In this document: piece by piece, positions 40,808 through 59,816 of the stretch
Layout of the letters: every line of letters begins with the position of its first letter
Numbering within the stretch: the first letter of the stretch is position 1
Assembly: GCA_051599415.1 (NCBI GenBank)
Contig: AP039690.1
Coordinates: 868,001-932,000, forward strand
Direction of reading: 5' to 3'
DNA length: 64,000 nucleotides
DNA from: Savitreella phatthalungensis
Taxonomy: Eukaryota
Made by a program: the position numbers and the translations under genes
Notes under the pieces: generated by a model
Told to the model about the DNA's origin: nothing
Database searches by the model: none
What the model saw: the letters and a program-made list of their open reading frames with translations, nothing else

Positions 40808-42715
40808 TTACCATTTCGTTTTCAGCAATCCTCGCATCATGTCAAATGAGTTCCCATCTGCCTGCACGCCGATGACCTGTCCTCGTTCCCCGGTCAATCG
40901 AACTTGAAGGTGTCCGTGGGTATGATGGATGCCAACGACTACTCCACGAAGATTGCCTTCCTTTTCAATCGTGACGTGCTGGCCGTTGTGCAGCCAATGG
41001 CGATAATATCTCTCGGCAATCGCGGCAAAGCCACCGCCGTCAAACTTTGCCACTAGCTCTTCCAGTCGGGAGAGCAGGGCGGCTAACAGATTTTCCATCG
41101 CCACTGATTCCTTGACAAAAGCATTGACGGAGATCGTTGGGGCAGGATTGTTCACATTGACGCCACATCCGATTGTCAGAATGTACTTATCCTGCCAGAA
41201 AGTCGTGCTGATTAGCGAACCAGACACCTTGGCGTAATATTTGCCTTCCAGCTCAAAACACGACGTGCCCAAGGTGTTTTGTGACTGTGGAACCCGCATG
41301 TAGACATCATTTGGCCACTTGATGCCAAGTTCGAGCTCTGGACTGAGCTCGAGCAAGGCCTCGACAGTGGCAAGCGATATCAGATATTGGAAAAATACCA
41401 GCCCTGCAGCTCCTCCACTTCCTGGAGAATCAGCCAGGTCATGATACAAGATGAGGCTGAAGGAGAGCACACCGGGAGGAGATATCCAGCTGTTTCCGCC
41501 CCGACCACGCCCGGATAATTGATGTGAACACAGCATCAAGGTCCCGTGTGGCAGATCACGAGAAAGTGAGAAGTTCTTGTCTAGCATCGTCTGTGATGAT
41601 GTCACTACCTCCGCGTACAACCCAGCAACGCCAAGCCGTGCATGAGGAGACAGCAGACCGAGAAAGCGGCCGACATCGAATAAAGGTGATGGCTCTGCAA
41701 ATCCCAAAGACACATATTTTATCTGTTTGTCCAGATCGTCGGCAAGCGGTTTAATCTGTGGTGCCGACTCGCCATCTGACAAAATCTGGAATGTGTCGTT
41801 CTCACAGACGATGAGGTTTGCCTTTGAGATCTTGCTGCTTAGCACAGCTATTAGCTTTTCTCTTGACCCCTGATCCTTCGCAAAGAGCTGTAAGGTCGAG
41901 AGCGACGGCAACGAGCTTGCGGAATCATTGACGCGCAGGCACAGCCGTTTGTCGAGAATCGACCTGAAAAACGACAGGCGCGCATTTTCATGCTTGCCAA
42001 GCGCATCGTTATTCAAATCTATCTGATCGTTTTCCGAGACGTCGTCGTGAGATCCTGTGCAGATCGTCCGCGGACCGATCTCAGGGTGAACCGCAGACAG
42101 GACCGCAACGCCACGATCCACGTCGCATTTGACCACGCACGCGTCGCCACCTCCAACAACAATGGAATCGGCTGATTCGCTGTATCTCGCGATCACTTCC
42201 ACACCTGGCTTCTCTATCGCATCGACGAACACGCCGCCTCCATTCCAATAACAGCGAAATGGTGGCATTTGCGTTGAGGGTTGTATTGAAACGGCGCGCG
42301 CCCCGATTTCCGAGTCATATGAGAAACCCTCAAAGGCACATCCCCGTACCACGCCCGGGAAGAATCCGAGATCTCGATCACCAACGACTGCCATATCGGC
42401 CGAGCTGGCTTCGAATTCGCACCTGCTTGCAGCGAAATACGCTCCGGCGCAAAGCCCAAGGTACTTGCCCCCTTTTGAGACGAAGGATCGAATTGCGTCT
42501 GTGCCACGACCACGAAGCGCCGCGCAGAAAGGGACGTCCCTCCCGCCCGGAACAACAAGCAGCGCGGTCGAGCTTGCCCAAGGCTCCTCAATCAATGCTC
42601 TTGCATCTATAGTTCTGACAGAATAGTACGGTGTCAGGAGCAACGTCAGCGTCGCCAGCGCTCCTCTGACAGAAGATTTTGAGGTTCCCGCTCCGGCGTA
42701 GACCAGAACATTCAT
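40808..42715 (-). CDS. BPL1: Biotin-protein ligase (holocarboxylase synthetase) with BPL_N domain
   Basis: MNVLVYAGAG, PGGRD, GLCAGAY (BPL_N); QLSGRGRGGNSW, IKWPNDVY, DGNSFDMMRGL. Confidence 0.96.
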   Translation of the reverse strand: MNVLVYAGAGTSKSSVRGALATLTLLLTPYYSVRTIDARALIEEPWASSTALLVVPGGRDVPFCAALRGRGTDAIRSFVSKGGKYLGLCAGAYFAASRCEFEASSADMAVVGDRDLGFFPGVVRGCAFEGFSYDSEIGARAVSIQPSTQMPPFRCYWNGGGVFVDAIEKPGVEVIARYSESADSIVVGGGDACVVKCDVDRGVAVLSAVHPEIGPRTICTGSHDDVSENDQIDLNNDALGKHENARLSFFRSILDKRLCLRVNDSASSLPSLSTLQLFAKDQGSREKLIAVLSSKISKANLIVCENDTFQILSDGESAPQIKPLADDLDKQIKYVSLGFAEPSPLFDVGRFLGLLSPHARLGVAGLYAEVVTSSQTMLDKNFSLSRDLPHGTLMLCSHQLSGRGRGGNSWISPPGVLSFSLILYHDLADSPGSGGAAGLVFFQYLISLATVEALLELSPELELGIKWPNDVYMRVPQSQNTLGTSCFELEGKYYAKVSGSLISTTFWQDKYILTIGCGVNVNNPAPTISVNAFVKESVAMENLLAALLSRLEELVAKFDGGGFAAIAERYYRHWLHNGQHVTIEKEGNLRGVVVGIHHTHGHLQVRLTGERGQVIGVQADGNSFDMMRGLLKTKW

Positions 42716-43026: not shown

Positions 43027-44973
43027 CTACAACTTGGCTTTTGAGCTAGCTGATGGTTCAAGCACACATAGCAATGAGGCCTCGCCAATTTGCTCGCCCA
43101 CCTTGATGTCCTCGGGTATGCTCTTGACCGTGCCCGTGCGAGGACTACGCACGTCGATCTCCATCTTCATTTGCCGTAGTACAGCGATGACCTCGCCTTC
43201 GGCCACAAAATCACCTGATTCCACCAGGAGCTCAACGAGAATTCCTGAGAATGGTGAGGCGACCTGCCAAGGGTCCCGTTTGTCCGCCTTTGCGTGTCTC
43301 GTTGCTCCTTGAGCTCGTTTGAGTGTGAATTCCTTTGCTTCAGTCGAGCCAACCGGCAGGAACTCCGCAGCCACATGTTTTGGCCAATCCATGCGACGCA
43401 ATTTCGTCACTTCCAGTAGCTGAGGTGCACCTCCCCCAAGTGAGAATTCAAATTTGTCACCCTGCCTGAAAAGCTGCCCTGAGTTCGAGCCGGACTGTGT
43501 CCAATCCCGACTTGCCGCCTGACTAGCTTTGACTTGTGCCTGACTGAGCCTCTGCGCCTGATGTTCGCGCTTTGTCAAGTACGCTTGACCTGCACCGACA
43601 ATACGGGAGACCATCGATGCATTGGACAGTGTCGTGATGTCAATAAGACCCGGCCGGTGGAGCAGATTGCTGCGTGTTAGACCAATGAGAAGAGATTGAT
43701 TAGTGTCGACGCCATTGATGCGAAGCGATCGTAGTGCTGCTACAGATCGCCGTAAGGCGATCTTGTAGGTGGCGCCGGAACAGATGACTTTCGCTACCAT
43801 GTTATCGAAGAAATCCGACACCAAGTAGGATGTCGTATTGCTGAGAAGAGAGTCAACACGAACACCAGGTCCGGCAGGCAAATTATGCGACGAAATCAGC
43901 CCGGTCGCAGGGGCGAACGTGATAGGATCTTCCGTGTTGACCCGACTCTGAATGGCATGACCCAAGGGAGCGTGTGGAAATGAGATCGACTCCAAGTTCA
44001 GTCCGTCGAGGCAGACGCCTAACAAGAGCTGCACCAGGTCTATGCCAGTAACTTCCTCCGTGATGGTGTGTTCCACCTGGATTCGCGGGTTGCACTCCAT
44101 GAAATAAAACGGAACTGATTCGCCGGCTGCGCGCGCGTCCACTAGAAATTCGAAAGTGCCGAGACCAATATATCCAACGCGCCGTGCCAGCTTCAAAGAC
44201 GCTTCGATGATCGGTGCCACACGATCGCGGGTCAAGGAAGAAGGCGCGATTTCAATCACCTTCTGGAAGCGACGCTGAAGCGAGCACTCTCGTTCGAAGA
44301 CATGTCTTACATTCCCATATCGATCACCAACGATTTGAACTTCAACGTGCTTGAACCCCCGGAGAGCGGCCTTCTCACAAAAGACTTGGCGCGATGGTGA
44401 TTCGTTGATAGCTTCTCCAAATGCACGTTCAGCTTCAGCAGATGACTCCACAATTCGGATACCGCGGCCTCCGCCACCGTCTTTGGCCTTGATGATGACT
44501 GGGAAGCCGACCTGATTCGCGAACTTGAGGACTCCATCCACGTCGTTCACGGCTGAAGTGGAAGGTAAGGTCGAGACGCCCACGTTAGCAGCCAATGCCT
44601 TTGCTTCGGTCTTATCACCGAGAGTCGCTAGCACGTCAGCAGACGGGCCAATGAATGTCATACCTGCTTGCATCACTGCTCGCGCAAAGGCCGCCGATTC
44701 ACTCAGGAACCCGTAGCCAGGAGCTATGCCTTTGCAGAGCCCACGTCTCGCGATGTCGACAATCTTTTCGATGTCCATGTACTGTGCCGGGGAATCAAGC
44801 CTGATAGAAACCGTGGCGTCGATCGCGTGCGCACCATCGTTGTCGGTGAACAGCGCGATGGTCTCAATACCACGCTCGTGACATGCGTTGATCAGCCGAA
44901 CTGCGATCTCGCCTCTGTTGGCGATCAGCACACGGTTCTCTGGCCCCGTCGGAGGCTTTCTCATGCCCCGCAT
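43027..44973 (-). CDS. Biotin carboxylase-BCCP (acyl-CoA carboxylase alpha subunit) with C-terminal PTS1 -AKL
   Basis: VLIANRGEIA, PGYGFLSE, KAKDGGGGRGIR, ERECSLQRRFQK, ECNPRIQVEH, GPGVRVD; biotinyl motif RQMKM; ends SKAKL*. Confidence 0.92.
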   Translation of the reverse strand: MRGMRKPPTGPENRVLIANRGEIAVRLINACHERGIETIALFTDNDGAHAIDATVSIRLDSPAQYMDIEKIVDIARRGLCKGIAPGYGFLSESAAFARAVMQAGMTFIGPSADVLATLGDKTEAKALAANVGVSTLPSTSAVNDVDGVLKFANQVGFPVIIKAKDGGGGRGIRIVESSAEAERAFGEAINESPSRQVFCEKAALRGFKHVEVQIVGDRYGNVRHVFERECSLQRRFQKVIEIAPSSLTRDRVAPIIEASLKLARRVGYIGLGTFEFLVDARAAGESVPFYFMECNPRIQVEHTITEEVTGIDLVQLLLGVCLDGLNLESISFPHAPLGHAIQSRVNTEDPITFAPATGLISSHNLPAGPGVRVDSLLSNTTSYLVSDFFDNMVAKVICSGATYKIALRRSVAALRSLRINGVDTNQSLLIGLTRSNLLHRPGLIDITTLSNASMVSRIVGAGQAYLTKREHQAQRLSQAQVKASQAASRDWTQSGSNSGQLFRQGDKFEFSLGGGAPQLLEVTKLRRMDWPKHVAAEFLPVGSTEAKEFTLKRAQGATRHAKADKRDPWQVASPFSGILVELLVESGDFVAEGEVIAVLRQMKMEIDVRSPRTGTVKSIPEDIKVGEQIGEASLLCVLEPSASSKAKL

Positions 44974-45239
44974 GAGTGACTATTCAGACTGACGACGGAA
45001 GTGACCACACGCCTACAGGTGGACTACGTTGGTCTCCTGTGCCCTTAAAGTCATGAATTCGATGATCAACTTCGCGTGTAATCCCGTTCGGATCTCGGTA
45101 CGGGGTAGCACAACTCGAAATTGCGGGGTTCAGAGTGCAGAACTGGCATGAGTTGAAGACATCCCGATGAGACGACAGTGACTGCAGCATCTCGACAATC
45201 ATCGCAATAGAGGCGTGACATCAACGATCAAGTGTGAGA

Positions 45240-46895
45240 ATGCCAAACGAGCGGCGCAAGCAGCGAAGAGCTGCAGACTGGTCCCCAGTACTCGATCGTA
45301 TCAGGCATATTCAGCATCTCTCTCGGGCTCCGCCCAAGGATACACGCGGCTACCAGGCGCACATCCGAGCAGGGAAGCAATGGGTGAGAGAAAGAATTAA
45401 ATGCCTCGTCGACGAGGGCAGCTTCCAAGAGATTGGTAGTGTCACTGGAACGGCGGAATATGAGGAGGCGAATAAAGTCAAAAGTTTTGTGCCTACGAAT
45501 ATGGTGACAGGACTTTGTAAGCTTAATTGCCGTCCTGTCGCTCTTGCTGCTGACGATTTTACAATCCGAGCGGGCCATGCTGACGGTGCGCTGTATGCCA
45601 AAGCTGCATATATCGAGCAACTAGCTCAGAGTCTGAAGATGCCGCTCATAAGGCTCATTGACGGTGCCTCTGGCGGTGGCTCTGTTGCTGTATACAAAGA
45701 GATTGGCTTCACATACATCCCACCTTCGACTGGAGCTGGCTGGCAGACGATGGTGGACTCCTTGTCAGTGATTCCCGTGATAGGATGCATCCTTGGGGCA
45801 TCCATTGGCCTTGGAGCGGCCAAAGCATCGACGACGCATTTCTCCGTCATCTGCGCACCTATCGGATCACTTTTCAATGCAGGCCCGGTTGTCGTGGAGG
45901 CAGCTGGCATTGAATCTGGGCTGAGCAACGCTGAACTTGGGGGCCCCGAGGTCGTTTGCACCAACGGCGCGATTGACAACTTCGGAGCAACTGAGGAAGA
46001 ATGCTTCGCAATCATTCGCAAATTCTTGTCTTATCTGCCCTCGAGTGTGCTTGAGCTTCCACCGACGCGTAGATACGACGCTGCCTCGGTTGAGGAGCGT
46101 GCTCGTCGGCATAAGTTCTTGGACACCTGTATTCCGAATCAGTCTAACCGTGCATATGCCATCCGACCGGTGATCGAGGCTCTTGTCGACGCCGATAGCT
46201 GGTTTGAGGTTGGCCCGAAATGGGGCTCACCTTGTGTCGCTGGCCTCGCACGTGTGCGAGGCAGGCCTTGCGGCATGATTGCATGGGACACAGAGAGTGC
46301 TTCGCTCGGGAATTTAACAGCTGAAGCTGCGAAAAAGCTTAAGCGTCATGTCGAGCTCTGCTCGCGATTCGGTTTGCCAATCGTTCAGCTTGTGGATATG
46401 TCGGGATTTGCGATCGGTTCAGCAGCAGAGCGGGCAGGGACGATGCGTGCTGGTGTGGACGCAATACTTTCTGTTTATCAGGCTAGTGTGCCCTTCTTCA
46501 ATGTGGTCATCCGAAAATGCTACGGGGTTGCCGGCGCCTTCCTTGTGGACAACAAATTGCCACATTTCCGGATTGCGTGGCCTTCCGGAGAATGGGGCTC
46601 CCTCCCACTGGCCGGCGGTATCGAAGCTGCCTATGCCTGGCCACTGAAGCAGGCGATGCAAAAAGGCGGGCCAGAAGCACGTAAGGATCTCTATGAGAAA
46701 CTCAAGGCAGAGTTCGATGTGCTTGGCGATCCAGTCCGCACGGCGATCAACTTCGGCATCGAGGAAATTGTACAACCCTCGCAGACGCGTGCCATTGTGG
46801 CTGGCTGGCTGGAGCGTATCTATGAAGTGCACCTGCCAATGCGACTGAAGATTGAGCAGCTCAAGCACTCGCTGATCGGCAAGAGCCTTTTGTAA
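45240..46895 (+). CDS. Carboxyltransferase (acyl-CoA carboxylase beta subunit)
   Basis: VRERIKCLVDEGSF, ADDFTIRAG, GASGGGS, LFNAGPVVV, ELGG, VDMSGFAIG..AE, IRKCYG, AWPSGEWGSLP; ATG at 45240. Confidence 0.92.
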   Translation: MPNERRKQRRAADWSPVLDRIRHIQHLSRAPPKDTRGYQAHIRAGKQWVRERIKCLVDEGSFQEIGSVTGTAEYEEANKVKSFVPTNMVTGLCKLNCRPVALAADDFTIRAGHADGALYAKAAYIEQLAQSLKMPLIRLIDGASGGGSVAVYKEIGFTYIPPSTGAGWQTMVDSLSVIPVIGCILGASIGLGAAKASTTHFSVICAPIGSLFNAGPVVVEAAGIESGLSNAELGGPEVVCTNGAIDNFGATEEECFAIIRKFLSYLPSSVLELPPTRRYDAASVEERARRHKFLDTCIPNQSNRAYAIRPVIEALVDADSWFEVGPKWGSPCVAGLARVRGRPCGMIAWDTESASLGNLTAEAAKKLKRHVELCSRFGLPIVQLVDMSGFAIGSAAERAGTMRAGVDAILSVYQASVPFFNVVIRKCYGVAGAFLVDNKLPHFRIAWPSGEWGSLPLAGGIEAAYAWPLKQAMQKGGPEARKDLYEKLKAEFDVLGDPVRTAINFGIEEIVQPSQTRAIVAGWLERIYEVHLPMRLKIEQLKHSLIGKSLL

Positions 46896-52180: not shown

Positions 52181-54790
52181 TCATCTCGAATTAAGGAGTT
52201 TTTGTAGGGCAGCTTCGATCTGTGGCCAAATGATGTCGCTTGTTTCTCCGCGGAAGTTGACTAAGATCCCTCGCTGCTCATAATAATGCTTCAGTGGAGC
52301 CGTGTTCTCGTCATACACAGCAAGTCGACGTGTAAATGTCTCAGCAACATCATCAGCTCGCTGCGTCAAGCGTTCGCCCGTCAAGTCATCCTGACCAGGC
52401 ACCTTTGGGGGATTAAATGTAAGGTTGTAGGTTCTGCCGCTCGGAGCATGGATCCAACGGTTGACGATCCGATCGAGAATCACCTCGCGAGGTACATCGA
52501 GATTTATGACGGCAGTCAGATCCGCTCCGGCGATGCGCAGATCTCGATCGAGGGTGCGTGCCTGTGCAATAGTCCGAGGAAAGCCGTCGAGAACGAAAGA
52601 CTTGTCGAGTAGCTGGTTATCCCGTAGATGGGCTAAGACCATGGAGCACATCAAATCGTCGTCTATCAACTGTCCTGCCTCAACGATAGCCTTTGCTCGA
52701 ATACCGAGATCAGTGGATTGAACGATCTGCTGTCTTAGTAGATCGCCAGAGGATACAACGACGATCCCCTCGAACGTCTCCATTATACGCTTCGAATGTG
52801 TACCTTTCCCTGCTCCTGGAGCGCCAAGGATGAGTCCACGAATTGCTCGGTCTCTATGATGTGCTTTGAGGGAGGCGCATGTAGCATCGTAGTCTGCCAC
52901 CAACCTCTCCATTGTCGCTCCGATCTGTCCAGTGTGCTGCACAATATGACAGCCGGCTGTAGCTAGCATTTCTGTTTTCTGTGCAGCGGTTAGATCTCCG
53001 GGCATTCGAAGAGCGCCCGCATGGCCCATCACGCGCATTTCAGGGGCCGTAAATCCAGCAATCATAGCTACGATTGGCTTTGGATTGGGCGTCTTGTTGT
53101 ATTCTGCAATAAAGCTTGCAGCCTCCGCTTCAGCCAATCCACCAATCTCACCGAGGACAACGATCCCTCGCGTATCTGCGCGTTGGACAAAGATGCGGAG
53201 GGCGTCTACCAAAGACGTGCCTGCCAGCATATCGCCGCCCATACCAACCACCAAAGATTGACCAAGGCCTACACGCGTCGTCTCGCCGACAGTCTCGTAC
53301 GAAAGCGTGCCGCTCTTCGACACGATGCCAATGCAGCCCGGCTCGTACTGCAAATATGGCATGATGCCGACACGACATTGGCGTGGTACGATAGTACCTG
53401 GGCAGTTTGGACCGATCAGTCGTGTCTTGCCCGCGGATAACCGCAGTGCATCATGCACCCGTAGCATGTCGTGTATCGGCACACCTTCCATGACTGCCAC
53501 GACCAGCGGAATTTGCGCCTGTATGGCGGCGATGATCGCATCCGCAGCTTTTGCAGCAGGCACGAAGACTGCACTGACATCCGGGTCGACATCTGCCACT
53601 GCCTCGCGGATCGTGTTGAAGACAGGAAGCTCGAGATGGCGCTGTCCACCTTTGCCCGGCGAGACTCCACCAACAACATTTGTGCCATAAGCGATAGTGT
53701 CCCGAGCATTGATGGTTGCCTGCCTGCCTGTGAATCCCTGGTACACGACACGTGTATGTCTGTCAAGGTCCAATCGGAGCACTTTTGCCCTGCGCGCATC
53801 GTCCATACAGGATCGCGAGCTCGTGTGAAACTGCCGACGCCCAGACGGCACAGTTGCAGTAGCTGGGGCCTGGCGTAGCTTGGCTTGTTCGATCACAGCC
53901 TTGGCTGCGTCCTCGATAGCATCGCAGCTCGTGAGCGATAGACCTGAACTTTCAATGATCTGGCGGCCCTTGTCCATATTTGTCCCGCGAAGACGTATCA
54001 CGACGGGTGTATCTTTCATCTGAAGTTCGCGCACTGCTGCGACAACGCTCTCGGCGATCATGTCGCATCGTATCAACCCGCCGTAGATGTTAACCAGAAC
54101 GGCTCTGGTATGTGGTCCTCGAAGCAGCACATCGAAGCCCTTAATAAGCAAAGCAGTCGTCGCTTGACCGCCAGTGTCGAAGAAATTAGCCGATTTCCCA
54201 CCATAGAGCGAAATCACATCATTCGTTGCCATTGCAAGTCCAGCGCCATTGACAACGCAGCCAATATCGCCGCCGAGATCCGCGAAAATCAATCCAGCTT
54301 TGTCTGCTTCCTTTTCCCACGCGGTGCGTATGTCATCACCTCGCAAGGAGGCCCACTCGAGTCTTCTGAATGCCGCATCTGGGTCAACTCTGATACGGGA
54401 GACGACGATCTGTTCCTCGACAACGGAGAAGGCTATCTCGATTGCTTCAAGTCTCTTAAATGCTGACCAGACAGCGTCCAGCTGCGGCATTGCGCTGTAA
54501 CTCCCCCCGTTGGACGCGTCAACCAACAGATCCTTGACTTGATCCGAAAGCGTGGCCCTCGTGTACTCGAGACAGTGCATGTGCGTTCCGTGGCCGAAGG
54601 TGTCTAGCACCGGCCTTTTGAGCTCACGATCTATACGTAGAGCGTACGTAACAGCCGCCTCGCACCGGTCAGCTACATTGAGACGGAAAGGTTGCAATAG
54701 CCTTTGAGCATCATCTTGTCGCAAAGTTCGAAAGCTGCGATTAGGAGCGAGCTTTTGTATCGATCTGAAATGTGATCTCATCATCGACAT
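52181..54790 (-). CDS. Fusion: succinyl-CoA-ligase-like beta (ATP-grasp truncated) + alpha + AK3/Adk2-type adenylate kinase
   Basis: Beta: IGCVVNGAGLAMATND, ANFFDTGG, NIYGGLIRCD, RLRGTN. Alpha: YQGFTG, GPNCPG, SKSGTLSYE, GEIGG, MGHAGA. Kinase: GAPGAGKGT, SSGDLLR, LDGFPRT, RWIHAPSGRTYN, QRADD. One uninterrupted 869-aa frame. Confidence 0.9.
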   Translation of the reverse strand: MSMMRSHFRSIQKLAPNRSFRTLRQDDAQRLLQPFRLNVADRCEAAVTYALRIDRELKRPVLDTFGHGTHMHCLEYTRATLSDQVKDLLVDASNGGSYSAMPQLDAVWSAFKRLEAIEIAFSVVEEQIVVSRIRVDPDAAFRRLEWASLRGDDIRTAWEKEADKAGLIFADLGGDIGCVVNGAGLAMATNDVISLYGGKSANFFDTGGQATTALLIKGFDVLLRGPHTRAVLVNIYGGLIRCDMIAESVVAAVRELQMKDTPVVIRLRGTNMDKGRQIIESSGLSLTSCDAIEDAAKAVIEQAKLRQAPATATVPSGRRQFHTSSRSCMDDARRAKVLRLDLDRHTRVVYQGFTGRQATINARDTIAYGTNVVGGVSPGKGGQRHLELPVFNTIREAVADVDPDVSAVFVPAAKAADAIIAAIQAQIPLVVAVMEGVPIHDMLRVHDALRLSAGKTRLIGPNCPGTIVPRQCRVGIMPYLQYEPGCIGIVSKSGTLSYETVGETTRVGLGQSLVVGMGGDMLAGTSLVDALRIFVQRADTRGIVVLGEIGGLAEAEAASFIAEYNKTPNPKPIVAMIAGFTAPEMRVMGHAGALRMPGDLTAAQKTEMLATAGCHIVQHTGQIGATMERLVADYDATCASLKAHHRDRAIRGLILGAPGAGKGTHSKRIMETFEGIVVVSSGDLLRQQIVQSTDLGIRAKAIVEAGQLIDDDLMCSMVLAHLRDNQLLDKSFVLDGFPRTIAQARTLDRDLRIAGADLTAVINLDVPREVILDRIVNRWIHAPSGRTYNLTFNPPKVPGQDDLTGERLTQRADDVAETFTRRLAVYDENTAPLKHYYEQRGILVNFRGETSDIIWPQIEAALQKLLNSR

Positions 54791-55171
54791 CCTTACCCAA
54801 TGATCTTCCCGACCATGTGCTTGGACTAGGTCTCGTCAGCAGTAGATGACGCGGGTAACAAGCTTTTTGATCACGCTGAAGGAGAGCTCTGCATTCGAGG
54901 TTTCCCAGGAATTCTCGGATCAACGATTGTTCGTTCCATGACCGATCGATTAATCGCGAGGATTCCCCACAACTGCATGGCCGGCTGTATACATGCAATA
55001 ATAATTCCGGGTTCTTCAAGTTGATCAATTCGATCGACTCAATATAAATTAAATGTGGGGTAATATTTCTCCAGTGTGTACGTACGTAGGTAAACAGGGT
55101 ACGTGCAAATATGTTCACGACGCACGGACGATGCATGGAATCCCCGATCGTCATCATCTACGGCGTTCTCA

Positions 55172-56350
55172 ATGATGGTTGAGGGCATCGCCCCGATGAC
55201 AGCGGACGACGATTCGTCCGCACCAGTAGACCTCGTCGAGCTGTCACGAAACGGAGCTATAATGGAGGTCAGCCTCAATAGACCGGGCAAATTGAATGCG
55301 CTGTCTGGGGAACTCATAGAAAGGCTCTCGCTGACTCTCTTGCAATGTGAGAGGGACTCTGGAGTTCGAGTCGTTGTGCTCAGAGGCAAAGGCAAAGCTT
55401 TCTGCGCTGGTGGTGATGTCGCTGCTCTTGCGCGGCTCGCCAAACACGGGACGCAGTCTTCCATCCATGAGGGGAATAAGTTCATGCAGCGACAATATCA
55501 GCTCAATCATGTGGTGGCGACACTGAACAAGACCACGATCGCAATCTGGGATGGCATCGCGATGGGCGGCGGTATTGGCGCGTCGATTTGTCAGGACTTT
55601 CGCATCAGCACAGAAAACACGATGATAGCGATGCCCGAATGTGCTATTGCGTTTTTCCCCGATGTCGGAGCATCCTATTTCCTGAACAGGCTGGACCATG
55701 GGATCGGTGCCTGGCTGGCCCTGTCTGGATCTAGAGTCAAAGGCGAAGACGCAGTGCTGCTCGGACTAGCTACCCATCATGTTGCTTCGGACCGCTTAGA
55801 GGGCTTACTCGCGGCGCTCGCTACCGAATGCGCATACGATAAAGAAGAAGTTGACAGGTTGCTCACGCGGTCGTCCTCCAATCCTCCGACAGGACAAATG
55901 CACGCCAAGCGAGCGCGGATACGCGCAATTTTCCAAGCTGGCAGCTTGAAGGAGATACTGCAGCATCTCGAAGAAAGCAGAGAAACGTGGGCCGCAGAGA
56001 CCCTTAGGAACATTCGTTCAGCTTCTCCAACTGCTGTTTGCGTCACCTTTGAACTTTTGAAGCGCACGAAAGGACTGAAAGCAGAACAATGTCGAGCTCT
56101 TGAATTCGTTGTTCACACGAATTTCATGCGTCTGCCTGACTTTGTGGAAGGCACGTTCGCCAGACTTATCGACAAGCCGGCGAGAACGGCACGGTGGTCA
56201 CCCTCCAGCATTGAGGATTGCACCGAGCAGTACGTCGCGTCGTTCTTTATCCCGAAAGATGCTCCACTGCGTTTGCGTGCGCAGATTGCGGATGAGGGAC
56301 GCCAGAATCGGTACGCAAGACACGCGCGACTAGTTCAAGCTACGCCTTAA
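55172..56350 (+). CDS. 3-hydroxyisobutyryl-CoA hydrolase family (crotonase fold, Ehd3/HIBCH-like)
   Basis: LNRPGKLNAL, AFCAGGDV, WDGIAMGGGIG, AMPECAIAFFPDVG, DFVEGTFARLIDK...W; first in-frame ATG at 55172. Confidence 0.92.
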   Translation: MMVEGIAPMTADDDSSAPVDLVELSRNGAIMEVSLNRPGKLNALSGELIERLSLTLLQCERDSGVRVVVLRGKGKAFCAGGDVAALARLAKHGTQSSIHEGNKFMQRQYQLNHVVATLNKTTIAIWDGIAMGGGIGASICQDFRISTENTMIAMPECAIAFFPDVGASYFLNRLDHGIGAWLALSGSRVKGEDAVLLGLATHHVASDRLEGLLAALATECAYDKEEVDRLLTRSSSNPPTGQMHAKRARIRAIFQAGSLKEILQHLEESRETWAAETLRNIRSASPTAVCVTFELLKRTKGLKAEQCRALEFVVHTNFMRLPDFVEGTFARLIDKPARTARWSPSSIEDCTEQYVASFFIPKDAPLRLRAQIADEGRQNRYARHARLVQATP

Positions 56351-58034
56351 AGATAGTCATGACCTTTTGTCTGTATGCTTCAGTACGGGCATGGGACATT
56401 TGAGTATGTATCTGATAGACTGCATGGAAACATACACGCGAACACGAAACAGTCGCGTTTGCTGTCTTGGACGGTGACAACCATTGGTAGCAAGCACGGC
56501 AGGAAAGAGTCAGACCACGAAACCAATCGTGATGCGATGAACCGTATGGCTCCCGGAATGTTCAGCATTGTGAGTCGCTTTCGTCGAATTCCTTGTCAGC
56601 ATGAAAGTCGCACCCAATAGGAGCTCGGAGCAGGAGGGCTTTGGTGGTATCTACGGCTCGCCCAGAAACGTGAGAGATTCGCAATTCGACCACGACAACC
56701 ATGCATCACTGACAAGCGTCCTGTCATCTGCCGGTTGGCAAAGCAAAAAGCGACCATTACAGCGCGGCAAAAGAATCACTCTTGAACAACTATCTCGATC
56801 GTCATAATGAGCCGAAATAAAGGCCGTTGCGAGCGCGTCCTCCCGTGAGGAAATGTACGGAATTGACGAGTACGCATATATACTCGATCATGTTTGTACG
56901 AGTGCCAGCGTTTCACGTGTACTCATGCGGCCTAAGTTTCGTGGGTCAATGCATATGATCAAACCTATTTACTAGGTAATTTCCAACAAAATCACCCCAA
57001 TTGACTGCAAGGTTGAACTGAACATCCCGCCGGCCACGATCGATCACCGATATGGCTATACCACGTACTGTAGGTATGTGAAAGACAAATATAAAATCAT
57101 GAGTTCGGATCACGATCTGGATTAATTATGCCAATATATAAAGCTAGGCACATATTGATATTCAGTAGTAGTCGACGGACCTAAAGCTTAATTGTTTTTA
57201 CCCACCTCAATGATGATTTCGACTGTGTGTGGAGTTCTGGTGACCAGGCCTGCAACGTCCAGTTTGATCTCATGCCCATACATGGTGCTTCACGATCATC
57301 AATTCAGATCCCTTGGCGAGTCACAGATTGAAACATCAACGGCTGCTAGCAGTGAATTCTCACATGACACTTGCAAACGTACGACAACAAGCCATAATCA
57401 AGTAGGCACTCAGGCTCTCGACCTAACCTCATCTGTGGGAAGAGCCTCATTTGGACACCACTGTACTGGCCTCCAATGGCACAAGTCGCCTGTTAGTCCT
57501 CGTTACTGAATCTCATCGCTAGGGCGACGTGTTCTCGACATCTGTTGACCTTCCAACGACCTCCAGCTGTTTTGGCAACTGACTTCTTCCGATCTTCCGC
57601 ATCCGTCGCATCCCACCGGTCACATCCTTGGGCACGCCGCTGCGTGGCATCGCTTTCTACTCGAAGCACCTGCTCCCGCGACACTCGTCCACCACGCGGT
57701 AGAGCACGCCGTTGCAAGCGTTGCCAGTCAATTCTGATCAAGCATACTGTGCCAAGTAGGGTTTGACAGGCTGAGACTCAAACAGCTGCTTCGTCTCTGC
57801 TGACTCGTCGCGCGGCCCAAAACTTAGATTACCATCGAAAAACTTGTGACTCTTCCATCAACCTCAAGACCCGGCCGCTTGCGTACCCAGGCAGGCATCG
57901 ACCGTCCCGAGTAGCCGCGGCAGATAATCTGGTGTCTGTCACGCGCAGCTGCCTCGCCTGTCCCAAGAACTGTCTATATAACTGGCTCAAATCGCACATT
58001 CATATGATTCTCATTGAGCAAGCTCTTGCATCAA

Positions 58035-59816
58035 ATGTCTAGTGAGGCCTCGATTGGTAGATCCGCTGGCTCAACTATGCCCACCGGCCGCGCCGCTGGC
58101 TCCGATACTACTCAGAGTCCCATGGAGAGGCAACAACCTTCAGTTCAGCAAAGCGACGATCGATTAACCATACCGCAGCACGCAGACAGTCATCCGCACA
58201 CCAATAGCACTTCAGCTGCGAGTGCACAATCACAAGTGCTGAATCCGGCTGCCATAAAAAATGAAGGTCCGAACGTTGGTGACATAGGCGAGGCTAAACC
58301 GCGTCAGAAAAGAAAGAAGGCCTCTCGAGCATGTCTACACTGTCAGAAGGCTCATCTGACGTGCGATGACGCCCGTCCGTGCGGACGTTGTATTAAACGG
58401 GGTCTGCACACCACTTGCCACGATGGCGTGCGCAAAAGGGCAAAGTATCTGCAGGATGTCGATCTCGATGATCTCTATCTGGCTCCTGGCGCGAATCGTT
58501 CTTCTCCTCAAGTAGTCACTCCCACGACTGCCACTGCGTACTCGGGCATCCCTCCATCACCGGGCATGGTTTCAGCGTACTCGCAAATGCCGAGTCTCCA
58601 ACGAAACGGCTCATCGTATAGCAATCCTGCCGAACTAGCCGCACAAGGAACGGAATCCACGTTTCACGACAACGCCTCGACACAAAGCAATGTGAACATG
58701 GCTACCGTCTCTGTCGATGCGTCTGCGAGCGCTCTGTTCGGAGATCATTTCCTCTTTGACTATCCTCCACTGTCAAGCTATGACTTCGATTCAAAGGCGG
58801 CTAACCTCGAATACAGCATGATCTCCACAATGCTTGGACGCGCCATGACTCCGGGTACCGAGGCGAGTAGCGATCCATTTGCACTGTCCCCGCAGAGCCT
58901 GCGTCCAGGTGACTTAGCAATGAGTCGTCAGTCGCAGGCGCACCCGTGGCTCGGCTCAGGCGCAAGCTCGGGAATGCCTGCTCCCGCGCCGTTGTCGACA
59001 ATGCCGCTCACGACTGCTGAGCAAATTGGGAAACAAGATATTCCATCCCCGGCTACCTCTAATCAGAGCTTTTCCTCTCAACCGAAATCTCAGCCAGCCG
59101 CACCATCGAACCATATTGACCCACACGGGCAAAGACCGACTCCTGTCGCTCGTCGTGCCGTTCCAGGCGCAAGCAAGGACCCAAGCAGCATCTACACCGC
59201 CATTACCCGGCCGTTCAGTTATACCAATGGCTACCATCTCCTCAACTCGTATTTACGCAGTCGATTCGACAAAGAAGATCTGGTCCGCATCGCTCGCGCT
59301 ATCGTGGGCTATCGGCCGTCGTTCATAGCGCTGACTAAGACTCTCCGTGAAGAAGACTTGACCTTCATGGAGGTCTGCTTTCAGCGCACTCTCCTCGAGT
59401 ACGAAAAGTTCGTTGGCTATTCGGGCACGCCTACCGTGATTTGGAGGAGGACCGGTCAGATCGAATTGGTGGGTAAGGAATTCTGCCTGCTAACGGGCTG
59501 GACGCGTGATCAGCTCCTCGGCAAGCAGACATTCATCGTGGAATTGATGGATGATGCATCGGTGGTCGAATACTTTGAGCAATTTTCTCAGCACGCCTTT
59601 GGGGACACTTCCTCAGTGGTTACGACGTGTATCCTTTTGACGCCGCCCGTTAAGAGGCGGGACAAGGCCGATGAAGAACAAGGGGCTACTGCATGCGGGG
59701 AAGAGAAAACGCCCGCGCAGGGCAAGGTGCCATGTGCATTCTGCTTTACTATCAAACGCGACGTGTTCGACATTCCCATGATGATTGTGGGCAACTTCCT
59801 GCCTTGTCTAAGTTGA
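58035..59816 (+). CDS. ERT1: Zn2Cys6/PAS transcription activator of gluconeogenesis Ert1/AcuK
   Basis: RKKASRACLHCQKAHLTCDDARPCGRCIKRGL..CHDGVRKRAKYL, AANLEYS, RPSFIA, GTPTVIWRRTG, RDVFDIPMMIVGNFLP. Confidence 0.95.
   Translation: MSSEASIGRSAGSTMPTGRAAGSDTTQSPMERQQPSVQQSDDRLTIPQHADSHPHTNSTSAASAQSQVLNPAAIKNEGPNVGDIGEAKPRQKRKKASRACLHCQKAHLTCDDARPCGRCIKRGLHTTCHDGVRKRAKYLQDVDLDDLYLAPGANRSSPQVVTPTTATAYSGIPPSPGMVSAYSQMPSLQRNGSSYSNPAELAAQGTESTFHDNASTQSNVNMATVSVDASASALFGDHFLFDYPPLSSYDFDSKAANLEYSMISTMLGRAMTPGTEASSDPFALSPQSLRPGDLAMSRQSQAHPWLGSGASSGMPAPAPLSTMPLTTAEQIGKQDIPSPATSNQSFSSQPKSQPAAPSNHIDPHGQRPTPVARRAVPGASKDPSSIYTAITRPFSYTNGYHLLNSYLRSRFDKEDLVRIARAIVGYRPSFIALTKTLREEDLTFMEVCFQRTLLEYEKFVGYSGTPTVIWRRTGQIELVGKEFCLLTGWTRDQLLGKQTFIVELMDDASVVEYFEQFSQHAFGDTSSVVTTCILLTPPVKRRDKADEEQGATACGEEKTPAQGKVPCAFCFTIKRDVFDIPMMIVGNFLPCLS

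Follow-up and report, generated by a model that had tools for sequence, protein, structure and literature searches.

How would an enzyme of the succinyl-coenzyme A (succinyl-CoA) synthetase (SCS) type work once the site at which it handles nucleotide is gone? The question is raised by a gene of the fungus Savitreella phatthalungensis, located in the stretch of 64,000 nucleotides analysed here (contig AP039690.1, positions 868,001 to 932,000; "the window", in whose coordinates all positions are given). It reads as a single uninterrupted open reading frame (ORF) of 869 aa plus stop (52181..54790, reverse strand), along which Pfam (E ≤ 1) placed Ligase_CoA (residues 179–299), CoA_binding (344–436), Succ_CoA_lig (484–622), ADK (654–841) and ADK_lid (778–813), that is, SCS-beta, SCS-alpha and adenylate kinase in this order in one chain. 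SCS is the textbook two-site enzyme, in which a phosphohistidine loop shuttles between a CoA/succinate site (site I) and an ATP-grasp nucleotide site (site II). The initial annotation of the beta end (54370–54790, residues 1–140 of the 869-aa ORF) held that the ATP-grasp domain was largely missing and that the fused kinase might stand in for it. On balance we favour a different answer for the whole: the fusion protein is probably mitochondrial and belongs, as a single chain, to a family of fused SCS-like proteins specific to fungi; it would be a site-I-only enzyme to which an AK3-type kinase was added later. The parts of the gene referred to below are as follows.

52181..54790, reverse strand: whole ORF, comprising SCS-beta remnant, SCS-beta C-terminal domain, SCS-alpha and AK3-type kinase; no intron is required
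54731..54790, reverse strand: residues 1–20, basic N-terminus without an acidic residue; predicted local distance difference test (pLDDT) 45–51; aligns with the N-terminus of the relative P0003
54386..54730, reverse strand: residues 21–135, folded ATP-grasp remnant (one N-terminal helix plus the C-terminal subdomain, without lid and without Mg/nucleotide ligands), from hidden Markov model (HMM), hhalign and AlphaFold2 (AF2) results
54647..54685, reverse strand: residues 36–48, junction at which about 85–120 residues of canonical SCS-beta (the KxQxLAGGRGK lid segment) are absent
53876..54322, reverse strand: residues 157–305, SCS-beta C-terminal (Ligase_CoA) domain, the beta half of site I, intact (Pfam 179–299, E 9.7e-47)
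54164–54166, reverse strand: codon of Q209 in GGQA (GGGA in solved SCS-beta chains)
53801..53875, reverse strand: residues 306–330, disordered beta-alpha linker (pLDDT <50 at residues 307–327)
52895..53767, reverse strand: residues 342–632, SCS-alpha, CoA-binding and flavodoxin-like domains (GFTG, PNCPG, SKSGTLSYE, GEIGG with E548, MGHAGA)
53021..53023, reverse strand: His590 codon, counterpart of the phosphorylated active-site His246alpha of E. coli SCS (MGHAGA at 588–593)
52841..52894, reverse strand: residues 633–650, linker, into which the last alpha-subunit helix is predicted to run on towards the kinase (helix 620–648, AF2)
52184..52840, reverse strand: residues 651–869, long-type adenylate kinase closest to AK3 (P-loop GAPGAGKGT at 656)
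52352–52459, reverse strand: residues 778–813, kinase LID (Pfam ADK_lid)

Pfam, NCBIfam, PDB sequences and a purpose-built HMM all failed to show similarity to ATP-grasp ahead of residue ~100–130. The ORF reaches TLRQDDAQRLLQPFRLNV at residue 22, YALRIDRELKRPVL at residue 49 and IGCVVNGAGLAMAT after exactly 175 residues; the NGAGL motif stands at residue 176, against 298 in the canonical eukaryotic SCS-beta of another protein, P0280. Pfam listed 10 families at E ≤ 1 without ATP-grasp_2 (PF08442), and Ligase_CoA starts only at residue 179. The NCBIfam SucC models matched only from model position 183–212 to 386 (query 106–129 to 304) with 164–188 bits against cut-offs of 370–604, and all 11 SCS-beta sequences of the PDB aligned only from query residue 100–132, which corresponds to chain residue 184–215. 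Likewise, an HMM purpose-built from 6 relatives with intact ATP-grasp aligned the fusion protein only from model position 243 of 313, i.e. residue 129. By hhalign (99.7–99.8% probability), residues 49–199 map onto the second half of ATP-grasp: YALRIDRE (residues 49–56) lines up with YLAxxxxRE, a strand of the canonical domain, nothing corresponds to the KxQxLAGGRGK segment, and a short DTFGHGTHMHC replaces the GGxxIEE segment. The absence of the KAQVxxGGRGK and GGMDIE motifs, and the mere 175 aa ahead of IGCVVNGAGLAMAT, on which the initial annotation had based its claim, were therefore borne out.

The ligand positions of the retained half are altered as well. The xDxK and LLEINPL positions bind Mg-nucleotide, as is known from structural work on the E. 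coli SCS-ADP complex. Here V130 is aligned with the Asp of the canonical xDxK strand, and A/S with the Glu and Asn of LLEINPL. A complete ATP-grasp, comprising lid Lys, GGRGK loop, GGMxIE and the Mg ligands in EINPL and xDxK, was thus not found; with the lid segment gone and the Mg/nucleotide ligand positions substituted, the usual ADP/GDP site would be unusable, as had been proposed. We are confident that the canonical nucleotide site was lost.

What remains is, in the AF2 model, a folded domain. Residues 21–135 have pLDDT ~73–95, and the model gives the elements H25–35, E48–54, E59–65, E70–73, H83–92, H98–113, E116–124 and E127–135. When residues 1–310 were modelled separately (pLDDT 84.1), the model aligned to SCS-beta chains over 283–298 columns with a TM-score by target (TMt) of only 0.46–0.54 (targets of 354–420 aa), as expected for a model in which about a quarter of the target is absent. 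The ESM Atlas clusters nearest to the remnant were ATP-grasp_2 at 0.83, which we take as a lead only. The identity of the single retained N-terminal helix (residues 25–35) is less firmly placed by hhalign, whose confidence is low there. In relatives such as P0031 a IKEYQALEMLKQKGIPF helix leads directly into LLSVTVDRTALS; the comparison favours the reading of the initial annotation, that this is the first helix of SCS-beta rather than a later one.

We asked whether the missing segment could be supplied by an exon that had escaped detection, the condition under which the truncation would have vanished. The reading frame is unbroken across the junction, leaving no room for additional coding sequence between codons ~40 and ~49. 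Upstream, the frame is closed by a stop 16 codons ahead of M1 and by more stops within the ~310–380 bp before the divergent neighbouring gene. The closest relative (P0003, 873 aa, 63% identical) has the same architecture with the same short N-terminus. Since the ORF is contiguous across the junction and in-frame stops lie upstream of M1, a hidden exon is excluded. The annotated protein model of the gene (P0002, 769 aa) begins only at M101 of the ORF. Residues 4–64 share 45% identity with the N-terminus of P0003 (E 4e-9, over its first 62 aa); the annotation therefore probably sets the start 100 codons downstream of the true one, which affects residues 1–100 (54491–54790, reverse strand). The basic residues 1–20 read as a mitochondrial presequence, and the protein is probably mitochondrial. 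In character the whole window looks fungal: its ORFs are long, for the most part free of interruptions, and encode typical eukaryotic proteins.

The truncation is also wider than the initial annotation had said, being a trait of a large fungal family that had been missed there. A homology search returned 527 matches, the best 120 of which were all fungal fused SCS-like proteins; 121 family sequences were examined (the query, its duplicate annotated model and 119 others). Their architecture was alpha-then-beta in 106, beta-then-alpha in 14 and unclassified in 1, the alpha-beta forms coming from Aspergillus, Penicillium, Talaromyces, Fusarium, dermatophytes, Coccidioides, black yeasts and others. 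A GGRGK-type loop was present in only 4 of the 121 (0/106 alpha-beta, 4/14 beta-alpha, from Exophiala and Xanthoria), and these four have a full ATP-grasp. Measured against the canonical model, ≥60 of the 86 positions of the lid region were filled in 16 of 120 proteins, 20–59 in 42 and <20 in 62; these filled counts come from a glocal alignment and are upper bounds. The gap seen here is found again in P0003, another 5 beta-alpha proteins and the alpha-beta family. Most members have lost the Mg/nucleotide ligands as well as the lid. Of the 106 alpha-beta members, 84 retain the equivalent of Glu197beta, the Glu that serves the phosphohistidine at site II. We regard it as very probable that lid loss is a family trait and not an artefact.

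In a tree of the alpha domain (44 rows; P0016 was excluded, its alpha domain being split by an insert) the fungal fused proteins form one clade, with support of 93 in the Shimodaira–Hasegawa-like approximate likelihood ratio test (SH-aLRT). The sister group of the fusion protein and P0003 (SH-aLRT 97) consists of P0004, P0005 (Taphrina deformans) and P0006, all of which lack both lid and kinase. Together they adjoin a lid-bearing Exophiala/Xanthoria clade (SH-aLRT 99) and a partly lid-bearing Fusarium clade (95), and the lid-less Aspergillus-type proteins are a separate group (SH-aLRT 100). Because the two lid-less groups stand apart in the tree and regaining an 85-residue lid is implausible, the lid, on this phylogeny, was lost at least twice within the fungal family. 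For the branch considered here we infer that lid loss preceded kinase addition. Our literature search, outside of which most subscription journals lay, found no publication on a lid-less SCS, an SCS-adenylate kinase fusion or the fungal fused family. Two alpha-beta members from Penicillium (P0072 and P0109, 1460 and 1478 aa) are annotated with a carnitine/choline acyltransferase domain (PF00755); this may hint at a pathway, with acyl-CoA passed on to carnitine, unless the gene models were merged. A very divergent beta-alpha SCS-like protein, P0265 (672 aa), joins the fungal fused clade at its base by a long branch; ATP-grasp was undetected in it, and it has the motif variants MYGHAGA and GYGAGIAM.

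Site I, by contrast with site II, is kept: by its sequence the protein retains the CoA-binding alpha domain, the beta C-terminal domain, His590 and Glu548. The beta C-terminal domain scored 145–155 bits to SCS-beta chains of the PDB (query 128–132 to 285–305), with long identical runs, e.g. NGAGLAMAT. The alpha part scored 308.6 bits to human SUCLG1 (phmmer) and was ~50% identical to it (structure search). MGHAGA (H590), GEIGG (547–551), GFTG, PNCPG and SKSGTLSYE, together with the beta blocks NGAGLxMATxD, ANFxDxGGQA and RCDMIAE, are invariant in 10/10 aligned fused proteins, spanning taxa as distant as Taphrina and Exophiala. The full-length AF2 model, made with a 44-row alignment, had a mean pLDDT of 90.3 and a predicted TM-score (pTM) of 0.76, with only the N-terminus and the linker 307–327 disordered; its Foldseek TMt to SCS-alpha chains was 0.94–0.97. 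The best-scoring NCBIfam models stayed below their cut-offs for both SucD (NF004230, 327.2 vs 336; TIGR01019, 324.3 vs 353.2) and SucC (NF001913, 187.6 vs 370; TIGR01016, 172.4 vs 375.55). For the roles of His246alpha, Glu208alpha and Glu197beta in SCS we rely on PMC10342173. Because the alpha part keeps MGHAGA with H590 and GEIGG with E548 and is ~50% identical to SUCLG1, phosphohistidine formation, which the initial annotation had thought probably preserved, is still plausible.

One residue of the beta C-terminal domain is altered. In the ANFLDxGGxA loop, all ten aligned beta-alpha fused proteins have GGQA (Q209 here) where the solved SCS-beta chains displayed in the PDB alignments have GGGA. 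This loop lines the acid site of SCS, and the variant may mark a changed acid specificity. Because GGQA replaces GGGA in all ten, the substrate is probably not succinate alone.

Next, the C-terminal domain was compared with known kinases. By sequence it is a complete AK3-type kinase: P-loop GxPGxGKGT, NMP-binding segment, GFPR and a 36-residue LID with RxDD are all present and aligned to AK3. It scored 215 bits with TIGR01351 (cut-off 168), and its PDB matches ranked AK3 first (206 and 204 bits), ahead of E. coli ADK (177), yeast Adk1 (174) and AK2 (161). By this bit-score ranking it reads as an ordinary, AK3-like GTP:AMP phosphotransferase. Among proteins of 477–1521 aa with a similar C-terminal region, an AK3-like kinase joined to SCS domains was found only in the gene's own annotated model and P0003. 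In a representative library, for which the best 150 of 38,008 matches were considered, one SCS-kinase protein, P0280, was found among the seven checked with Pfam (the two top multi-stretch matches plus five others; the rest of the best 150 were judged by their matched query ranges); the checked representatives were otherwise repeated kinases or SCS-only proteins. P0250 and P0285, considered as further truncated forms, were discarded as fragments without an initial Met. Predicted docking of the kinase (637–869) on the ligase core (1–636) gave scores of 0.00, 0.43 and 0.00 against a mark of 0.34, in runs made without controls, and counts neither for nor against a contact between them.

P0280 (677 aa) is a canonical GTP-type SCS-beta fused to an AK2-type kinase, with no alpha part. 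Its SCS-beta has a full ATP-grasp (ATP-grasp_2, 222.6 bits) and scored 370 bits to pig GTP-specific SCS-beta over its whole length; its kinase resembles AK2 (202.6 bits) and, in the kinase tree, branches apart from that of the fusion protein. By these comparisons, SCS and adenylate kinase were fused at least twice independently, in the present clade and in P0280. Since P0280 keeps a complete ATP-grasp, fusion of SCS to an adenylate kinase does not by itself imply replacement.

The AK3 lineage found here has other partners as well. In nine proteins (P0131, P0132, P0134–P0137, P0142, P0143 and P0148; the source of P0134 is Protomyces lactucae-debilis) it is joined to a CLYBL-like HpcH/HpaI lyase, an enzyme that requires no nucleotide, their kinases being 57–61% identical to that of the fusion protein (268–294 bits, vs 291 for P0003). 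A stand-alone AK3, P0276, belongs to the same group. The best solved match of the lyase part was human CLYBL (169.6 bits), and no publication on a CLYBL-AK3 fusion was found. The suggestion that the fused kinase replaces the lost site did not fare well against these observations: the lid-less sisters P0004, P0005 and P0006 have no kinase, the kinase keeps every adenylate kinase motif, the same AK3 lineage is fused to CLYBL-like lyases, and P0280 combines an AK2-type kinase with a full ATP-grasp. Because lid-less sisters lack the kinase, CLYBL-like lyases carry it and P0280 keeps its ATP-grasp, we read the kinase as a tethered add-on; that it came later and is no replacement for the lost site seems to us rather probable.

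What could a site-I-only enzyme do? In the scheme that we consider, the ligase part would no longer couple cleavage or formation of the thioester to NDP/NTP at a site of its own. It would carry out two half-reactions at site I, acyl-CoA + inorganic phosphate ↔ acyl-phosphate + CoA, and acyl-phosphate + His ↔ phosphohistidine + acid. If they proceeded forward with one acid and in reverse with a second, the net result would be a phosphate-dependent, nucleotide-independent transfer of CoA, for example from succinyl-CoA to another di-acid; with water as the acceptor the outcome would be hydrolysis. The AK3 domain would have joined only once the lid had gone, as a kinase attached to a dicarboxyl-CoA pathway of mitochondria, and in sister fungi the same kinase would be tethered to the CLYBL-like lyase of such a pathway. 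We prefer CoA transfer or hydrolysis because this chemistry uses every conserved element and explains the repeated loss of the lid, and we put it forward tentatively as the specific reaction. The idea of CoA transfer builds on the nucleotide-free exchange between succinate and succinyl-CoA by SCS known from classical enzymology.

The pathway itself is suggested from two sides. In mammalian mitochondria, itaconate is broken down by SCS, an enoyl-CoA-hydratase-family enzyme and CLYBL in succession (PMC13307414). Taken with this pathway, the CLYBL-AK3 fusions point, by analogy, to a mitochondrial dicarboxyl-CoA route. A weaker hint to such a route is the neighbouring gene, an enoyl-CoA hydratase-family (ECH_2) gene at 55103–56350 on the forward strand, divergent from the fusion gene and ~310–380 bp away. 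Its best solved matches were 3-hydroxyisobutyryl-CoA hydrolase (HIBCH) and the mitoribosomal protein mS47 (196 bits).

Several points weigh against this reading of the function. The retention of the Glu197beta equivalent in those 84 alpha-beta members is left unexplained by a pure site-I model, and hints that the histidine loop still visits the remnant. Recurrent fusion of SCS with adenylate kinase argues for selection on nucleotide coupling, which is awkward for a nucleotide-free ligase. The CLYBL link is indirect: among proteins of 918–2620 aa no CLYBL+SCS-like fusion was found, the 2 matches both being helicase fusions (a weak negative). The tree of the kinase domain (27 rows) was an unresolved polytomy and did not give the order of the fusions, and the ECH_2 neighbour may be an unrelated housekeeping gene. 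The site-I-only activity itself is deduced from sequence and model.

The alternative that survives best, though we think it unlikely, is that AK3 does supply the missing nucleotide site, the phosphohistidine loop at His590 passing its phosphate to a nucleotide held in the P-loop kinase; in relatives a CLYBL-AK3 protein would act in trans. The outcome would be a new NDP-forming acyl-CoA synthetase or, with the lyase, a machine like ATP-citrate lyase built from different parts. We keep this alternative alive because the Glu197beta equivalent is retained, in 84/106 alpha-beta relatives, and fusion of SCS to adenylate kinase is recurrent. It would also fit that the lid is gone while His590 and Glu548 are kept, that a continuous helix (620–648) is predicted to join the last alpha helix to the kinase, and that AK3 is found on either enzyme of the putative pathway, in 2 SCS-like and 9 CLYBL-like fusions. 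However, neither the 106 Aspergillus-type proteins nor the lid-less sisters (P0004, P0005, P0006) have a fused kinase; the kinase itself does not look remodelled, its LID and its two nucleotide sites being as in a normal AK3; and the independent fusion P0280 keeps its complete ATP-grasp. We know of no precedent for a P-loop NMP kinase that takes phosphate from a protein histidine. The bolder extension, that the SCS-like, AK3 and CLYBL-like parts together make a mitochondrial "ATP-citrate-lyase analogue" to activate and cleave a C4/C5 hydroxy-diacid (malate, citramalate), is a long shot.

Hardly better is the proposal that only the kinase functions and that the ligase part is a pseudoenzyme, kept as scaffold or regulator without catalysis, or else the product of a decaying gene. 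Loss of a whole subdomain, repeated independently, does suggest relaxed constraint on part of the protein, and the NCBIfam scores below equivalog cut-offs (alpha 327.2 vs 336, beta 187.6 vs 370) lean the same way. Decay is nevertheless hard to reconcile with an ORF intact over 869 codons, catalytic motifs of the alpha and beta C-terminal domains conserved in 10/10 proteins from Taphrina to Exophiala, an AF2 model confident throughout the ligase part, and an N-terminal remnant conserved with P0003.

We also considered that the lid might be supplied in trans by another polypeptide, either a canonical SCS-beta or a stand-alone ATP-grasp protein. ADP-forming acetyl-CoA synthetases split their five domains between subunits, and domain shuffling is known in this superfamily; the C-terminal ATP-grasp subdomain is, moreover, kept here as a folded unit (pLDDT ~90). 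Against this, the ligand positions in the retained subdomain are also substituted, and a donated lid would meet a dead half-site. There is no partner in the window, where none of the 26 other ORFs of ≥180 aa has SCS domains and the only ATP-grasp is the biotin carboxylase of a gene like that for the alpha subunit of methylcrotonyl-CoA carboxylase. No split, lid-only protein turned up either, a weak negative since shorter proteins were never searched. We rate this explanation as quite improbable.

That the truncation is an artefact of annotation or assembly (a missed exon, a frameshift or a wrong start) is next to negligible: the annotated P0002 does differ from the ORF reading at the N-terminus, but nothing interrupts the frame at the junction, stops precede M1, P0003 has the same architecture, and the same gap occurs in the further beta-alpha proteins and the alpha-beta family.

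Other genes of the window deserve mention. About 6–10 kb from the fusion gene lies a divergent pair, a biotin carboxylase with a biotinyl domain (43027–44973, reverse strand) and a carboxyltransferase (45234–46895, forward strand), which by sequence are most like methylcrotonyl-CoA carboxylase alpha and beta; a biotin-protein ligase is encoded at 40808–42715 (reverse strand). Just past the ECH_2 gene, at 58014–59816 (forward strand), is a zinc-cluster protein with a PAS domain of the ERT1/AcuK type, a type of regulator of gluconeogenic and non-fermentative carbon use. A scan of the intergenic region for bacterial promoters and terminators, signals of a kind foreign to a fungal host, gave no match.

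The anatomy of the fusion protein is solid and would surprise an enzymologist of SCS; its function is a matter of deduction. Site I and the histidine persist across a whole fungal family that includes Aspergillus, Penicillium, Fusarium, Coccidioides, Trichophyton and Taphrina species, and site II has been given up there. This would imply an unrecognised use of the phosphohistidine/acyl-phosphate half-reaction, with CoA transfer, hydrolysis and delivery of phosphate to a new acceptor as candidates. The label "succinyl-CoA synthetase subunit alpha" routinely given to the family misleads metabolic reconstructions. The AK3 fusions, SCS-like and CLYBL-like, offer a testable handle on the pathway of the family, likely a mitochondrial dicarboxyl-CoA route of itaconate, citramalate or malate catabolism. 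If AK3 did stand in for ATP-grasp, a classic enzyme fold of the tricarboxylic acid cycle would have exchanged its nucleotide-binding domain for a non-homologous one.

How does the fusion protein compare with known systems? Its fold and motifs place it in the NDP-forming acyl-CoA synthetase superfamily. With SCS proper (E. coli SucCD; SUCLG1 with SUCLA2 or SUCLG2; yeast Lsc1/Lsc2) it shares the alpha part, the phosphohistidine motif and the beta C-terminal domain; unlike SCS, it has beta and alpha in one chain, a lid-less ATP-grasp, substituted Mg-ligand positions and an appended kinase. Because a complete ATP-grasp is absent and the SucC/SucD cut-offs are not reached, its sequence tells us that it should not be called a succinyl-CoA synthetase. 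The citryl-CoA synthetase module of ATP-citrate lyase has the same single-chain beta-then-alpha order (human ACLY 5teq_A; Foldseek TM-score by query (TMq) 0.57, 671 columns), but the identity is only 18–20%, and ACLY has a working ATP-grasp and a citrate-synthase-like lyase domain. AK3 (human, bovine), a mitochondrial GTP:AMP phosphotransferase with Adk2 as its yeast counterpart, is the best solved match over the whole kinase domain, from which the kinase here differs in sitting C-terminal to a ligase. The CLYBL-like+AK3 fusions of Protomyces-like fungi have the same C-terminal AK3 lineage and the same RGLxLGAPGAGKGT entry, with a lyase instead of an SCS-like part as the N-terminal partner. 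P0280 likewise carries an SCS subunit N-terminal to a long-type adenylate kinase but, unlike the fusion protein, has a full ATP-grasp and an AK2-like kinase. With the fungal fused family, whose members go by the names "putative succinyl-CoA synthetase subunit alpha", "CoA-ligase" and "CoA-binding domain-containing protein", the fusion protein has both the clade and the degenerate ATP-grasp in common; it differs from most of them in being beta-then-alpha rather than alpha-then-beta, and it alone, with P0003, bears the kinase.

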